DNA from: a virus
Lineage: Duplodnaviria > Heunggongvirae > Uroviricota > Caudoviricetes
IMG/VR virus record: IMGVR_UViG_2529292871_000023
Strand: one strand, 5' to 3'
Length of the DNA stretch: 17,813 nucleotides
Shown here: piece after piece, positions 9,271 to 17,813 of the stretch
Numbering within the stretch: position 1 is the first letter of the stretch
How the letters are laid out: each line of letters opens with the position of its first letter
Translations under genes and position numbers: made by a program
The notes under the pieces: model-generated
Databases searched by the model: none
Seen by the model: only the letters and a program-made list of their open reading frames with translations
Told to the model about the DNA's origin: nothing

Positions 9271-10005
9271 ATGGAGACTGTTTTTGACGCACTGAAAGCG
9301 ATGGGAAAAGCCACGTCGGTAGAGCTGGCTGCGCGACTTGATATCAGTCGTGAAGAAGTACTGAACGAGCTGTGGGAACTGAAAAAGGCTGGCTTCGTTG
9401 ATAAAAGCGTATACACCTGGCGTGTGGCTGATAACAACGTTCAGCAGGAACAGCCAGCGCCAGAAGAAACCACCACGGCAACAGAAGCGAAAATCTCAGA
9501 GTGCGATTTAACCGCGACGATTGAACAACGCGGACCACAAACGGCGGATGAACTGGCTACGCTGTTCGGTACAACATCCCGCAAAGTTGCTTCAACGCTG
9601 GCAATGGCAATCAGCAAAGGTCGTCTGATTCGCGTAAACCAGAACGGTAAAATTCGTTACTGCATACCAGGTGATAATTTACCAGCAGAGCCGAAAGTTG
9701 AATCGGTAGCGGAAACCGATGGTAAAGCCTTTCCTCAGCCAGCCGGTGTTGCGTTACCGGTACAGAAAGATGCAACACAGGAAGATATTAAAACAGAAAC
9801 TGTGGCGGACATTGTGCAGTCGCTGCCATCGTTTACTGCAACGCGAGAAGATGATTTGATTTTGCCATCGCTGCATATGGCAAATCGCGAACTGCGTAGG
9901 GCGAAGAATCATGTCCAGAAGTGGGAGCGAGTCTGCGCCGCGCTGCGGGAGCTGAACAAGCACCGGGATATGGTTGCCGGGATTTGTCGGAAGTCCGGGC
10001 AATGA
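9271..10005 (+). CDS. Hypothetical protein with two winged-helix-like segments
   Basis: 244 aa from ATG 9271 with GGGAGG ribosome-binding site. Repeated HTH-like segments [28 protein letters not shown] and [30 protein letters not shown]. Confidence 0.55.
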
Positions 10006-10040: not shown

Positions 10041-10613
10041 ATGAAGGTAAAATGCATCGGCAGTCTGATTGGTCGTAGTGAGGCGGCGGTCAGGATGAAA
10101 GCCCAGGTTAAGGGAATAAGCCTGATTCTGCGGGGTGATTTTCACCAGTCAACAAAATATCCGTAGCGCGATAACGGTCAAAAATTATGGCGCTGACACT
10201 TTTGTGCCACTGGAGATGACTGTACCTAAGTTCAGGGGAGAAGAACACGTCCGGTGGGATGGTCGGGCCAGATTTAAAGGGCAGGTCATGGCTCCAGCCT
10301 GTACGCTGGCAATGGAGGCTGCCTGGCGGGAAATTGATATGGGAACCACGCCACTCAGGGATTTACTGCCGGTCCAGAGAATAAATTCCTGTTACGGTTA
10401 CACCACTGTGATCTTGCAAGTGCAGGAAAGTAGGTCTACACGGTAACGCGAGTGCGTGTAACTTTTGATGTCATTCCCGTAGAAACACCGGACAAATTTT
10501 CGCTGACAGGTCATGCAGAAGGTATAAATCTGCAGATTATGGACAATTACGGATATCCGGCAAGAGCCGGAAAAAGCATGCCGCCTCTAATTCTCAGTGG
10601 AAGATGGACTTGA
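10041..10613 (+). pseudogene. Degraded gene remnant, possibly a chaperone-usher pilin-like subunit, broken across three frames
   Basis: Frame at 10135..10446 contains RFKGQVMAPACTLAMEA...DMGTTPLRDL, reminiscent of the conserved pilin N-terminal motif FKGxVVxxACxV...LGxV. Coding-like sequence continues in another frame to 10613. No intact ORF and no clear signal peptide. Confidence 0.25.
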
Positions 10614-10672
10614 TTATACTCATTGCATTGTCAGAAATAGTTATCCATTAAAGGCTGGCTATTCCAAACAGG

Positions 10673-10700
10673 ATGTTGATTACAAAAATGTAATCAACAT
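10673..10700. repeat. 12-bp perfect inverted repeat (ATGTTGATTACA-aaaa-TGTAATCAACAT), candidate regulator binding site
   Basis: Read directly from the sequence. Located about 165 bp upstream of the substrate-binding protein gene in a very AT-rich intergenic region. Confidence 0.6.
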
Positions 10701-10864
10701 GTAAGGTTTATACTCTTCAATATGCGTATAATTTTCCTTATTTTGTTGACTTTAAATAACAAGCTATGCACGAGGTAAAGTCGGATAAGTTTATCTGGAT
10801 GTAATATATATTATTTGTAGTGTTTATAACTTTATTTCATGATAACCAATAAAAGGAGTTTTTT

Positions 10865-11623
10865 ATGAGGAACATAATGGCAGGTTTTTTAATATTCCTG
10901 TCTTCTGCTGCTTATGCTGATATCAATCTGTATGGTCCTGGTGGCCCGCATACAGCCTTGCTTGATGCAGCCAAACTTTATGCCGAAAAAACAGGTATTA
11001 TAGTGAACGTTCATTACGGCCCACAGAACAAATGGAATGAAGATGCCAAAAAAAATGCAGATATCTTGTTTGGCGCATCAGAACAATCTGCTCTGGCTAT
11101 CATTCGGGACCATAAAGACAGCTTCAGTGAAAAAGATATTCAGCCTCTTTATCTGCGAAAAAGTATTTTACTGGTAAAGAAAGGTAATCCTAAAAATATC
11201 CGGAGTATTGACGACCTGACCAGACCTGGGATTGGCGTAATTGTTAATGATGGTGGTGGTACCAGTAATACATCAGGCACTGGCGTCTGGGAAGATATTG
11301 CCGGACGTAAAGGGAATATAGAAACTGTCGCCGCAATCCGAAAAAATATTATTTTATATGCGCCCAATAGCGGAACTGCACGTAAGGCTCTTGAGAATCA
11401 GCCTGGAGCAGATGTCTGGATAACCTGGGCTGACTGGGCAGCCAGTAATCCAGAAATTGGTGATGTCGTGGAAATAGCGCCAGACTACGTGATATGGCGT
11501 GATATGAACATTACAGTACGTCAGGATGCAAATGATGAAACCCGTCGATTTGCAGAATGGCTACAAACCGATGAAGCGGCGCCTGCATTCAAAAAATATG
11601 GCTGGACCAGGAAAGGCACTTGA
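10865..11623 (+). CDS. Orphan periplasmic substrate-binding protein (ABC-transporter-type binding-protein fold, ModA/sulfate-binding-like), moron
   Basis: 252 aa. N-terminal signal peptide MRNIMAGFLIFLSSAAYA. AAGGAG ribosome-binding site. Preceded by about 400 bp of AT-rich DNA. No permease or ATPase gene adjacent. Confidence 0.75.
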   Translation: MRNIMAGFLIFLSSAAYADINLYGPGGPHTALLDAAKLYAEKTGIIVNVHYGPQNKWNEDAKKNADILFGASEQSALAIIRDHKDSFSEKDIQPLYLRKSILLVKKGNPKNIRSIDDLTRPGIGVIVNDGGGTSNTSGTGVWEDIAGRKGNIETVAAIRKNIILYAPNSGTARKALENQPGADVWITWADWAASNPEIGDVVEIAPDYVIWRDMNITVRQDANDETRRFAEWLQTDEAAPAFKKYGWTRKGT

Positions 11624-11742
11624 CATCCTCGTCCTTCAGGACGTGGATTCTTTTTCCGGATGCCGCGCCAGCGGCATGTAGGGGCAGCTCACAAAACGGA
11701 AAAAATTGTACGCTAAGCCTCGCCAGGTGAACTGAATTCATT

Positions 11743-11766
11743 CCGATATGGGAATTCCCATATCGG
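11743..11766. repeat. 24-bp perfect palindrome CCGATATGGGAATTCCCATATCGG
   Basis: Read directly from the sequence; centred on GAATTC. Flanked by further hairpin-capable repeats at 11630-11643 and 11826-11861, upstream of hokD. Confidence 0.9.
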
Positions 11767-11958
11767 GCGAAAACGGTTTGCTGTAACGGCAGAGTTAAGT
11801 AGGATTGCTGCGGGTGCTTGAGGCTATCTGCCTCGGGCATGAACACCAACGGCAGATAGATAAAAGCCCCACCCGACTATAAATCGAAGTGAGGCCCCTA
11901 TATGCTCGTCACATATAGATTGCCTCTTACGGACCGAAAGGTCAAGGAGAAGCAGGCT

Positions 11959-12114
11959 ATGAAGCAGCAAAAGGCGATGTTAATCGCCCTGATCGTCATC
12001 TGTTTAACCGTCATAGTGACGGCACTGGTAACGAGGAAAGACCTCTGCGAGGTACGAATCCGAACCGGCCAGACGGAGGTCGCTGTCTTCACAGCTTACG
12101 AACCTGAGGAGTAA
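11959..12114 (+). CDS. hokD: Hok-family type I toxin (HokD/RelF)
   Basis: 51 aa, MKQQKAMLIALIVICLTVIVTALVTRKDLCEVRIRTGQTEVAVFTAYEPEE, matching recalled E. coli HokD. AGGAG ribosome-binding site. The listed ORF extends upstream in frame to 11902. Confidence 0.85.
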   Translation: MKQQKAMLIALIVICLTVIVTALVTRKDLCEVRIRTGQTEVAVFTAYEPEE

Positions 12115-12330
12115 GAGACCCGGCGGGGGAGAAATCCCTCGCCACCTCTGATGTGGCAGGCATCCTCAACGCACCCGCACTTAACCCGCTTCGGCGGGTT
12201 TTTGTTTTTATTTTCAACGCGTTTGAAGTTCTGGACGGTGCCGGAATAGAATCAAAAATACTTAAGTAGCGCGCAGGGATAAGAGGGATGGTCCCTTAAA
12301 GGGGAGAGCTAATTATCCGGAAGGATTCTG

Positions 12331-15246: not shown

Positions 15247-15322
15247 GGCCCTTTAGCTCAGTGGTGAGAGCGAGCGACTCATAATCGCCAGGTCGCTGGT
15301 TCAAATCCAGCAAGGGCCACCA
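15247..15322 (+). tRNA. tRNA with anticodon CAU, ileX/ileZ-like (tRNA-Ile2 lysidine type, or Met)
   Basis: Hand-folded cloverleaf: acceptor GGCCCTT/AAGGGCC, D-stem GCTC/GAGC, anticodon loop CTCATAA, T-arm GCTGG-TTCAAAT-CCAGC, discriminator A plus encoded CCA. Strong resemblance to E. coli ileX. Confidence 0.85.
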
Positions 15323-15412: not shown

Positions 15413-15486
15413 GCGTTGTTAGCTCAGCAGGACAGAGCAATTGCCTTCTAAGCAATCGGTCACTGGTTCGACTCCAGTACAACGCG
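15413..15486 (+). tRNA. tRNA-Arg (anticodon UCU)
   Basis: Hand-folded: acceptor GCGTTGT/ACAACGC, D-stem GCTC/GAGC, anticodon stem ATTGC/GCAAT with loop CTTCTAA, T-arm ACTGG-TTCGACT-CCAGT. CCA is not encoded. Confidence 0.8.
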
Positions 15487-16254: not shown

Positions 16255-16568
16255 TTTTTTTGTTTGCTGTTTATTAAAAACACTTCTGCATGGTGAATCC
16301 CCCTGTGCGGTGGGGCAATCAGCAAGAAGGAATATGGGGTAATCGCGGATTCAGGTGCTGATACTGAATTCACCGGGAGGCACCCGGCACCATGCTTTGC
16401 CACAAAAGTGTTATTTCTGTTTTTCTCAAACTATCATCGTTATCCCTTTATTTTCGGCTGCGCATGGCGCGGCCTTTTTTTTACGACCAGCCACTGGCAG
16501 ATGGTCATCCTGTGATTTGATTCCGCTTCCGGCTTTTTAACTCTGTTCCTCTACACGGGAGAAATTCG

Positions 16569-17813
16569 ATGTCGATTAAACATTACGATGTTATCAGGGC
16601 GGCGTCGCCGTCAGACCTTGCGGAAAAGCTGACACACAAACTGAAAGAGGGCTGGCAGCCATACGGCGGACCGGTTGCCATTACGCCGTACACACTGATG
16701 CAGGCGGTGGCTATTGAAGGAGAGCCACAGGTCGGCCCTTCATCTGAGCCGGATTGGTACTACGTCATCGTACTGGCCGGGCAGTCCAATGCAATGGCTT
16801 ACGGTGAAGGGCTTCCGCTGCCGGATTCATACGATGCTCCGGATCCGCGCATTAAACAGCTGGCGCGCCGCAGTACAGTGACGCCGGGTGGGGCTGCCTG
16901 CAGATATAACGATATTATTCCGGCTGACCACTGTCTGCATGATGTGCAGGATATGAGTACGCTGAATCATCCGAGGGCTGACCTGAGCAAAGGGCAGTAC
17001 GGCTGTGTCGGTCAGGGTTTACATATTGCCAAAAAACTGCTCCCGTATATCCCGAATAACGCGGGGATCCTGCTGGTACCATGCTGTCGTGGTGGTTCGG
17101 CATTTACCCAGGGCGCGGAGGGGACATTCAGCGAGTCCACGGGGGCCAGTCAGGATTCGGCACGCTGGGGGGTGGGCAAGCCGTTATATCAGGATCTGAT
17201 TTCCCGCACAAAAGCGGCATTGCAGAAAAATCCCAAAAACGTTCTGCTGGCCGTCTGCTGGATGCAGGGTGAGTTTGACATGAGCGCCGCCACCCACGCA
17301 CAGCAACCTGCGCTGTTTACAGCCATGCTGACACAGTTTCGTGCTGACCTCTCCGTGTTTAACGCGCAGTGCCATGGTGGCAGTGCTGCAGATGTGCCGT
17401 GGGTTTGTGGTGACACGACGTATTACTGGAAAAATACATACGCTACCCAGTACGACACCGTGTACGGCGGGTATAAAAACAGGGAGAGTGAGGGCGTTTA
17501 TTTTGTGCCCTTCATGACAGATGGTAACGGCGTCAATACCGCCACTAACGCGCCGGCAGAAGATCCGGATATTCCGGCATCAGGATATTACGGTGCGGCA
17601 TCGAGAACGAATGGAAACCAGGTATCATCAAACCGCCCGACACATTTCAGTTCATGGGCGCGCAGGAGCATTATTCCGGATCGTCTGGCAACCGCTATTC
17701 TGAACGCAGCCGGGCGCACCTCAGCCTTCATCAGTGGTAAGGCACCGGAAATCAAACCCTCGCCCGGCGGCAACACCGCCATCGGGTACCGTCTGCAGAT
17801 ACGTCCGTTCGCA
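16569..17813 (+). CDS. nanS: Prophage-type sialate O-acetylesterase (NanS-p-like, SGNH/SASA hydrolase), 3'-truncated by the window edge
   Basis: Open from ATG 16569 (GGGAGA ribosome-binding site) to the window end with no stop over 415 codons; absent from the ORF track because it is open-ended. Active-site-type motif VLAGQSNAMAYG. Position downstream of Q and the tRNAs matches nanS-p in Stx-type lambdoid prophages. Confidence 0.75.
   Translation, partial: MSIKHYDVIRAASPSDLAEKLTHKLKEGWQPYGGPVAITPYTLMQAVAIEGEPQVGPSSEPDWYYVIVLAGQSNAMAYGEGLPLPDSYDAPDPRIKQLARRSTVTPGGAACRYNDIIPADHCLHDVQDMSTLNHPRADLSKGQYGCVGQGLHIAKKLLPYIPNNAGILLVPCCRGGSAFTQGAEGTFSESTGASQDSARWGVGKPLYQDLISRTKAALQKNPKNVLLAVCWMQGEFDMSAATHAQQPALFTAMLTQFRADLSVFNAQCHGGSAADVPWVCGDTTYYWKNTYATQYDTVYGGYKNRESEGVYFVPFMTDGNGVNTATNAPAEDPDIPASGYYGAASRTNGNQVSSNRPTHFSSWARRSIIPDRLATAILNAAGRTSAFISGKAPEIKPSPGGNTAIGYRLQIRPFA

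Follow-up and report, generated by a model that had tools for sequence, protein, structure and literature searches.

Positions 11770–12215 of the 17,813-nt viral DNA stretch analyzed here (Caudoviricetes; IMG/VR record IMGVR_UViG_2529292871_000023; hereafter the window, with coordinates counted from its first letter) very probably form a complete hok/mok/sok type I toxin–antitoxin (TA) module, and the 24-bp perfect palindrome just upstream of them a relic of a KilA-N/BstA-type gene. The starting point was a prediction, made from the sequence alone, of a hokD toxin gene without relBE, preceded by this palindrome and a hairpin. In the following, we describe the module and its relation to known hok loci, the origin of the palindrome at the junction with the upstream paa adhesin gene, and a class of palindromes within KilA-N genes from which it derives.

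The hok/mok/sok module and its relatives

The region from the predicted RNA start to the hok start codon matched the Rfam family RF01794 with 103.9 bits (gathering score 59), the full model (1–157) covering window 11812–11961 on the plus strand. Positions 11770–12215 aligned with phage 933W at 85% identity over 93% of their length, for which mokW, hokW and a SokW antisense RNA have been annotated; the region also aligned end to end with hokC/mokC/sokC of K-12 and with R1-type hok. What the original prediction had treated as unusual is, in other words, alignable with known complete hok/sok loci of a phage, a chromosome and a plasmid. The prediction had also left undecided whether this hok copy has its own promoter, a mok-like leader or a Sok-like antisense RNA. 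Judged by the alignments with the hokW, hokC and R1-type loci, all three appear to be present, and the comparison with plasmid and chromosomal hok loci that it had proposed brought out candidates for tac–fbi, ucb, dcb and a minus-strand sok promoter (Table 1). We note that RF01794, called 'sok antitoxin', is a sense-strand model of the 157-nt hok leader up to the hok ATG and not of the ~60-nt antisense Sok, so that annotations based on it place 'sok' on the wrong strand.

The hok open reading frame (ORF) bears out the predicted hokD gene, its product being identical to that of K-12. This peptide is the commonest of 17 peptide variants and has the length (~50 aa) and the N-terminal hydrophobic helix of the Hok/Gef family; the HokD coding sequence is toxic when over-expressed (bioRxiv 10.1101/2025.08.07.668861). 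Codon 47 of hok is TAC followed by G (window 12097–12100), and TACG is the reported context of A-to-I editing by TadA, with Tyr-to-Cys recoding in hokB, hokC, hokD and hokE (bioRxiv 10.1101/2025.08.07.668861; PMC5630033). Seven nucleotides upstream of the mok ATG, which was kept in 63 of 64 homologues, lies the sequence GAGG. Among 64 near-identical hok loci (L143–L222), mok had three architectures, namely a 70-aa frame fused in frame to hok (n = 27), a 19-codon leader ORF that stops where hok begins (n = 28) and a 68-aa out-of-frame overlap (n = 8). Insertions or deletions of a single base, located in the sok −10 region and close to the hok Shine–Dalgarno (SD) sequence, convert one architecture into another.

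The −10 hexamer of the predicted hok promoter, TAGGAT, aligned with TAGAAT of 933W hokW and TATAAT of K-12 hokC and lies 6 nt before the conserved GGGTGCTTGAGG 5′ end; the predicted RNA start is the conserved GGGUGCUUGAGG at 11812. On the opposite strand, the −35 hexamer of the predicted sok promoter was present in 57 of the 64 homologues and its 17-nt spacer in all of them, while the −10 hexamer, CAATCT, aligned with TAACCT of sokW and CACTCT of sokC. Judging from the primers, TAACCT is the hexamer that was swapped in the promoter-less construct of Takada et al. (PMC8621323). Both sokW and sokC start 9 nt inside mokW and mokC, which maps to 11910 in the window. The predicted Sok RNA has a hairpin followed by UUUU (fold z = −4.1); by analogy with the 71-nt sokW annotation, its 3′ end might instead lie at 11840. 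In the hok 3′ untranslated region (12123–12204, plus strand), we also observed a sub-threshold Rfam match to isrK (25 bits; gathering score 50), which probably reflects just a shared terminator-like structure.

The spacer upstream of hok had been described as structured, and this was borne out by the 398-nt hok mRNA candidate, whose fold had a z-score of −6.9 with none of 100 shuffles as stable, and by two further hairpins at 11625–11648 and 11660–11677. The predicted hairpin CTATCTGCC/GGCAGATAG is present as well, but sits two bases to the left of where it had been placed, with 11824–11832 pairing with 11851–11859. It is the first stem of the RF01794 consensus and part of a longer imperfect inverted repeat (11813–11832/11851–11870). 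The paired positions of tac and fbi were the same in 60 of 64 distinct homologues, position 12164 alternating only between a G-C and a G-U pair; the bulged base 12170 varied (C, T or A) while the tac/fbi pairs stayed. R1-type loci have GGCGCUU/AAGCGCC in place of the window tac/fbi, a compensatory difference. In the full-length fold, the mok SD sequence GAGG was paired with 11866–11872. When the RNA was cut in silico at 12160, tac paired with 11864–11870 and GAGG with 11923–11926. This predicted switch matches the model described for R1 hok (PMC9841398), with both its tac–fbi and its ucb/dcb pairings recovered in silico. Sequence homology, the sequence features of every RNA element and the predicted fold switch could be demonstrated for the locus in the window.

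Such a locus would act through a weak constitutive promoter (−10 at 11800–11805) that gives rise to the 398-nt hok mRNA. The full-length RNA would be inert, with tac at its 5′ end paired to fbi at its 3′ end and the mok SD sequence locked by the upstream box. Slow 3′ trimming would remove fbi and allow tac to re-pair with the upstream box, upon which mok, fused in frame to hok, would become translatable. Unstable Sok antisense RNA, starting at ~11910 on the minus strand, would bind the mok leader and the duplex would be destroyed; once the supply of Sok stops, Hok would be made and the inner membrane depolarized. By homology, the expression, toxicity and biological role of the locus would follow those of its relatives.

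Compared with relB-relE-hokD (relF) of the K-12 Qin prophage, the window was 100% identical over 11945–12250, which comprises the hok SD sequence, the ORF, fbi and the terminator, and both prophages have rem, DUF968/ydfU and Q downstream. The homology starts at 11945, 14 nt upstream of the hok ATG; beyond this point K-12 has relE, directly upstream of hokD as originally stated. K-12 hokD has no hok promoter, tac, ucb, mok start or sok gene, and relBE stand in their place. Conversely, as the original prediction had it, neither relB nor relE was found in the entire 17.8-kb window (tblastn with K-12 RelB and RelE, best E = 2.4), which accordingly does not hold a relBE-hokD (relBEF) operon with both genes directly upstream of hokD. 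The alignments indicate that relBE-hokD of K-12 is the derived, truncated state, in which relBE replaced everything upstream of the hok SD sequence. The oddity that the prediction had implied for the window is hence reversed: the arrangement of K-12, with homology only from 11945, is the truncated one, and the window locus is the intact form of hokD. That K-12 hokD is truncated was reportedly already noted by Pedersen and Gerdes in 1999.

Searching 5426 complete E. coli genomes with a 627-bp query, we obtained a match in 4719. The entire query, including the paa-side spacer, was present in 573 genomes, and most other hits, in the sampled rows from which we took the start points of other hok loci, aligned from ~11770–11793 on, that is, over the whole locus.

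Among characterized loci, hokW-mokW-sokW (933W/Sp5; AF125520) shares with the window, besides the 85% DNA identity over the locus, an identical first 50 nt of the mRNA, the in-frame mok–hok arrangement (70 and 51 aa), the Sok start 9 nt inside mok, the same tac/fbi and a lambdoid prophage as host. The two differ in the Hok C-terminus (..FTAYEPEE in the window, ..FVDYESEK in HokW), in both −10 hexamers as given above and in position, the window hok following paa at the beginning of the nin region and hokW lying near the right end of the phage genome. Of the two loci, activity has been demonstrated for hokW-sokW only: in prophage Sp5 it is a functional type I TA pair and helps the cells to lyse once the prophage is induced (Takada et al. 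2021, PMC8621323), and the knock-out primer used for it is identical to window 11808–11857 (PMC8621323). K-12 hokC/mokC/sokC (gef) is 80% identical, with mokC in frame with hokC and the same GGGTGCTTGAGG 5′ end, but has lost the 3′ fbi region to IS186, whereas the window locus retains fbi and terminator. Between the hokC stop codon and the end of IS186A lie 20 nt (K-12 16400–17400, L140), and the extrapolated 3′ segment no longer matches. Plasmid R1 hok/sok (parB), whose mechanism is reviewed in PMC9841398, can be aligned with the window over the whole locus and has the same order of elements, the same 398-nt length, tac–fbi, ucb/dcb, mok and a Sok promoter inside mok. It differs in that its Hok is ~40% identical to the window Hok, its mok is out of frame with hok, its leader is ~20 nt longer, its tac/fbi are of the other type, and the locus is plasmid-borne with proven post-segregational killing.

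Table 1. Coordinates of the features in and around the hok/mok/sok module of the window
Feature	Position	Strand	Basis or remark
Full-length hok mRNA, 398 nt	11812–12209	+	Predicted +1 to intrinsic terminator; RF01794, fold, end-to-end alignments
hok (hokD/ckf) toxin ORF, 51 aa	11959–12114	+	Identical to K-12 HokD WP_000813254.1
mok frame, 70 codons, in frame with hok	11902–12114	+	ORF list; geometry as in mokW/hokW and mokC/hokC
Predicted hok promoter	11778–11805	+	−35 TTGCTG 11778–11783, 16-nt spacer, −10 TAGGAT 11800–11805
Predicted sok promoter	11917–11945	−	−35 TTGACC 11945–11940, 17-nt spacer, −10 CAATCT 11922–11917
Predicted Sok antisense RNA	11858–11910	−	5′ end 11910; 3′ end ~11858 after hairpin and U run
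tac element, 5′ end GGGUGCUUGAGG	11812–11823	+	Pairs with 12164–12176 in the minimum free energy (MFE) fold; invariant in homologues
Conserved 5′ hairpin of hok mRNA, CTATCTGCC/GGCAGATAG	11824–11859	+	MFE pairs 11824–11832 with 11851–11859
ucb/anti-SD box	11864–11872	+	Sequesters mok SD sequence GAGG (11891–11894) in full-length MFE fold
fbi element CCUCAACGCACCC	12164–12176	+	Pairs with tac in MFE and centroid folds
hok mRNA intrinsic terminator	12183–12209	+	Terminator scan: 7-bp stem 12183–12200, 5 GC pairs, T run
Perfect palindrome CCGATATGGGAATTCCCATATCGG, 'DMGIPIS' version of KilA-N internal palindrome, orphan copy	11743–11766	.	Inverted-repeat scan; same 24-mer in KilA-N genes
Relic of KilA-N/BstA-type gene, codons ..S-x-D-M-G-I-P-I-S-E-L-I-Q..	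11734–11775	−	DNA match 37/42; no ORF left
paa/adfO adhesin gene	10865–11623	+	Annotated 'AcfC family adhesin Paa' and 'Paa/AdfO' in identical loci
paa intrinsic terminator	11625–11656	+	Hairpin 11625–11648 and T run; terminator scan, inverted-repeat list, −12.7 kcal/mol
Small GC-rich hairpin ATGCCGC-GCCA-GCGGCAT	11660–11677	+	Fold z = −2.0 (weak); inside paa module

The palindrome at the paa–hok junction

The upstream neighbor of the module had been recognized as a binding-protein moron. Its product indeed matched Pfam SBP_bac_11, a solute-binding fold (E = 5.5e-34), and a phage record labels the gene 'Paa/adherence factor AdfO'. Because a plasmid-borne paa homologue (86.6% identity, 36 plasmid records) aligned over exactly 10679–11691, we take these positions as the bounds of a paa module, to which the terminator at 11625–11656 and the small hairpin at 11660–11677 also belong, since both lie inside the stretch shared with the plasmids. 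The terminator scan called two sites, 11630–11643 and 12183–12200. The spacer between paa and hok is a mosaic, in which the paa module ends at ~11691, the hok module starts at ~11770 and the ~80 nt in between hold the palindrome.

The palindrome CCGATATGGGAATTCCCATATCGG was found exactly as predicted. It consists of 12 + 12 bases with no spacer and occurs once in the window; none of 200 shuffles gave an equivalent, even with 3 mismatches. The original prediction had listed it together with the hairpin in the structured DNA ahead of hok; the hairpin is the 5′ stem of the hok mRNA, the palindrome part of a fragment of a different, older gene. It lies upstream of the point at which other sampled hok loci begin to align (11770–11793), and by these alignments it is not part of the hok/sok structure. 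No Rfam family matched over 11700–11800 even at E ≤ 1, and a known RNA family was rejected as an explanation.

On its minus strand, the window agreed with enterobacterial KilA-N genes at 37 of 42 positions, including 14 of the 18 outside the palindrome. When the 40 flanking bases were compared with 66 distinct KilA-N genes, the minus strand gave a mean of 15.3 identities and the plus strand 9.6, which is the chance level. The window 24-mer is identical to the version in intact genes (e.g. L329) and in KilA-N ORFs among the hits in GTDB. Moreover, three related prophage contigs (L183, L185 and L187) carry an intact bstA-like gene with KilA-N and BstA_C domains (Pfam PF04383 and PF26567), which lies upstream of hok, diverges from it and is oriented like the relic. 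The same fossil is kept in two other E. coli prophage contexts, one (L008 type) again just upstream of hok and the other (STEC299) beside an ibrAB-like moron and with one mismatch. An intact KilA-N (PF04383) ORF is not left in the window, where the DNA homology extends over 42–50 nt with stop codons on both strands. From the DNA comparison, we conclude that the palindrome is the core of a 42–50-nt minus-strand relic of a KilA-N/BstA-type gene at the paa/hok mosaic junction. Most likely, this relic is passive in the window.

The exact 24-mer was present in 52 viral contigs, ~40 of which have the same paa–hok context, and overall in at least eight unrelated phage contexts with G+C contents from 27% to 69%. 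In the GTDB species-representative genomes, its 20-nt core was located at 82 sites spread over many phyla, whereas chance would give ~0.5; the palindrome as a chance or single-locus feature was rejected on these counts. Most of the 82 sites were inside KilA-N-domain ORFs at one fixed position (..ELS-x-DMGIPIS-ELIQ..KGG..). Exact 20–24-mer copies were also seen outside KilA-N genes in unrelated phages and prophages, in the tail of a RecT gene (L040), the tail of an AAA_24 gene (L057) and the linker of a Rha gene (L137); these are in frame and fall into tail regions outside the domains of such replication and recombination proteins. Further copies lie inside an ORF of ~2000 aa (L051/L096) and in intergenic DNA, there with longer, lineage-specific extensions of the arms (L080/L091/L099).

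Palindromes inside KilA-N genes

Across the KilA-N loci that we examined (L224–L388, e.g. L304 464–1222, L305 2501–3265, L315, L329 and L365), the peptide at the palindrome site varies without gaps (DMGIPIS, DTGIPVS, DVGIPTS, VTGIPVT, SMGIPID and others). The residues two and three places to either side of G-I-P pair as the mirror codons expected from palindromic DNA, with M-I, T-V, V-T and A-A as inner and D-S, E-S, S-D, V-T and A-A as outer pairs. Mirror-codon compatibility was found for 65 of 78 inner and 68 of 78 outer pairs, compared with means of 32 and 40 and maxima of 45 and 51 in shuffles. Six peptide versions are each encoded by a perfect palindrome of 22–24 nt.

An unbiased sample was obtained by fetching 41 distinct KilA-N genes from metagenomes with peptide patterns that do not touch the palindrome site. 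Thirteen of them had perfect 24-mers, all different, and 29 had at least 10 of 12 complementary pairs, whereas elsewhere in the same 41 genes none of 10,197 equivalent centers exceeded 9 of 12. Pairs of third codon positions (four per gene) were complementary in 129 of 164 cases (79%) against a background of 26.7%. In the species-representative genomes, the next two base pairs outside the exact 20-mer were complementary in 93% and 69% of 72 contexts, with all four pair types represented, and complementarity fell to chance beyond 24 nt. In Saprospiraceae and relatives (L056, L063, L082, L105, L112 and L133), the same palindromic DNA occupies the same KilA-N position in a different frame, which reads ..LLEERYGNSHIAPxREVLRVIKGG...

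We seriously considered that the palindrome is an accident of the codons for a conserved DMGIPIS peptide, as the domain naturally contains this peptide in varying forms. This was rejected because other peptides are also encoded by perfect palindromes, third positions are complementary at 79% rather than 27%, bases outside the searched 20-mer covary and Saprospiraceae read the same DNA in another frame. Our counts ignore shared ancestry; even so, selection at the nucleotide level is hard to avoid, because there are so many distinct perfect versions. The palindrome of KilA-N genes is very likely a selected nucleotide-level element that is kept by compensatory mirror-codon substitutions. Wobble pairs were not enriched, and one version changes its center symmetrically (GGTATACC), which may point to a site in duplex DNA more than to an RNA hairpin, a hint tempered by several versions in which the central four bases are broken. 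We found no description of a KilA-N internal palindrome in the searchable literature. The x-x-G-I-P-x-x palindrome is a feature defined in the present analysis, and the window 24-mer is an instance of it.

The gene that left the relic, in its KilA-N part, combined KilA-N and BstA_C domains, which is the architecture of BstA abortive-infection genes; the window itself has no bstA ORF. BstA is suppressed by short cognate DNA elements in its own locus that act as DNA (Owen et al. 2021, PMC8585504). The aba element of BTP1 is 63 bp long with terminal CCCGCC direct repeats, lies at the 5′ end of bstA and differs from the palindrome (PMC8585504), and BTP1 BstA has neither the GIP motif nor the palindrome. 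The BTP1 aba sequence shares nothing with window 11700–11800, where there is no CCCGCC repeat pair. With sequence and position both different, and BTP1 bstA devoid of the palindrome, the published BTP1 aba was rejected as its identity. For BstA of E. coli and of Klebsiella, the position of aba within the locus was not mapped (PMC8585504), and the BstA paper does not mention an internal KilA-N palindrome (PMC8585504).

Alternative readings and the place of the locus in its prophage

Several observations weigh against a working module and against the KilA-N origin of the palindrome. Neither of the two predicted promoters, that of hok and that of sok, was called by a strict sigma-70 consensus scan. 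The −10 hexamers CAATCT (sok) and TAGGAT (hok) are off consensus at several positions and differ from those of the hokW locus by 1–2 bases, and the promoters, RNA ends and toxicity of the locus are predicted from its homologues. Within the close hokD/hokW family, tac and fbi showed conservation and no covariation, the compensatory evidence coming from the distant R1 type only. According to a survey (bioRxiv 10.1101/2025.08.07.668861), the chromosomal hokA/B/C loci do not cause post-segregational killing, and the prophage copy could likewise be poorly active. As for the relic, no significant protein-level KilA-N match was found beyond the palindrome (tblastn, best E = 0.03), and the homology signal comes from only ~18 flanking bases; protein-level proof of a pseudogene was given up, and DNA alignment and strand asymmetry settled its identity instead. 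The locus might, then, be complete in sequence and yet functionally silent or decayed, carried along as a passenger of the paa moron without TA activity. Weak promoter hexamers that the consensus scan does not call would fit this, as would the absence of killing by hokA/B/C in earlier work and the fact that K-12 tolerates a hokD copy without any Sok. We nevertheless consider it quite improbable, since every regulatory element is intact and conserved in at least 60 distinct homologues, the Hok peptide is unmutated and of the commonest version, the 85%-identical hokW-sokW is active with a −10 hexamer that is no stronger, and at least 99% identity is kept in more than 550 genomes.

The palindrome, in turn, could have been kept for a function as a DNA element, be it a binding site for a KilA-N protein, an anti-BstA (aba-like) immunity or decoy site, or an operator of hok or paa. 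Its location at −46 to −69 of the hok promoter would suit such a role, and there is strong nucleotide-level selection for a perfect palindrome in KilA-N genes. The 24-mer recurs as an orphan in three E. coli prophage contexts, twice just upstream of hok, and again in the RecT, AAA_24 and Rha gene tails of unrelated phages, and BstA is suppressed by cognate DNA in its own locus (PMC8585504). Yet the sole mapped aba, that of BTP1, has another sequence and lies at the 5′ end of a bstA without the palindrome, and the link between the KilA-N domain and the site is hypothetical. The whole paa–hok spacer is at least 99% identical among the 580 genomes that have it, with no extra conservation of the palindrome visible, and the STEC299 copy has a mismatch. 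A cognate bstA-like gene is also rare (137 of 5426 E. coli genomes), with few of the listed strains being enterohemorrhagic E. coli (EHEC). On balance, a retained function is unlikely. Far less probable still is an RNA hairpin that ends or stabilizes the paa transcript, or a bidirectional terminator that insulates hok. The palindrome does lie downstream of paa and can fold into a 10–11-bp hairpin of about −18 kcal/mol on either strand (z about −4), but neither strand has a U run and the palindrome was not among the sites called in the terminator scan, on which grounds a terminator was rejected. Furthermore, paa has its own terminator within its module, and the palindrome lies outside this module and is accounted for by KilA-N homology. 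A passive relic of a KilA-N/BstA-type gene next to a complete hok module remains the reading that we prefer.

Elsewhere in the window, a full-length Rfam match to the DicF antisense small RNA (4667–4718, minus strand, 76.7 bits) was found, by which the window belongs to a Qin/dicB-type lambdoid prophage. Two tRNA genes (15247–15319 and 15413–15486, plus strand) lie just after the gene for the Q antiterminator; in strain E2865, whose locus is identical, they carry the annotations tRNA-Ile and tRNA-Arg. A partly gapped match to the STnc100 small RNA family (16259–16431, plus strand, 100.8 bits) follows downstream of the Q antiterminator and tRNA genes. The near-identical genome of E2865 has pseudogene annotations for the genes ahead of paa (window ~9272–10005 and 10171–10704, plus strand; coordinates mapped from L001), the first being a DUF1627 gene with a frameshift and the second a fimbrial-protein gene that has both a frameshift and an internal stop. 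The pairing of paa and hok is itself documented: in O-island 57, adfO (z2053) never occurs without ckf (z2054), described as a 'putative phage-associated cell-killing factor' (PMC8565820). The hokD locus of the window is this ckf, which constantly goes with adfO/paa both there and in lambdoid EHEC prophages of the PPompW type, and phage records of PPompW-type prophages label the same gene 'gef: phage maintenance protein'. As a hokD finding, the locus is already known and annotated, and ordinary.

What the analysis adds on this side is a correction of the K-12-centered view of hokD, which is normally a full hok/mok/sok module with relBE-hokD as a truncated exception, as well as the positions of mok, Sok, tac and fbi, all of them unannotated, in ckf, a marker gene used in risk typing of Shiga toxin-producing E. 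coli. Its value lies more in the by-product, the KilA-N palindrome. KilA-N genes across bacterial phyla maintain, within the part that encodes the domain, a perfect palindrome of 22–24 nt, the covarying arms of which dictate the amino-acid pairs flanking G-I-P, and which is a testable candidate for the DNA site recognized by KilA-N domains. To this KilA-N group belongs the BstA defense family, with its self-immunity via an unexplained cognate DNA element. If the palindrome is the cognate site of the KilA-N domain, it could be the aba-like self-immunity site of canonical BstA proteins. It is rather doubtful that the window copy is a free-standing, functional version of this KilA-N/BstA internal element, serving as a stolen immunity or decoy site. 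Were this true, the orphans upstream of hok and in the RecT, AAA_24 and Rha tails would be stolen immunity or decoy sites, and a bstA-less EHEC prophage would be protected from BstA defense of the DMGIPIS type. Orphan palindromes may, in this way, be counter-defense elements of phages.

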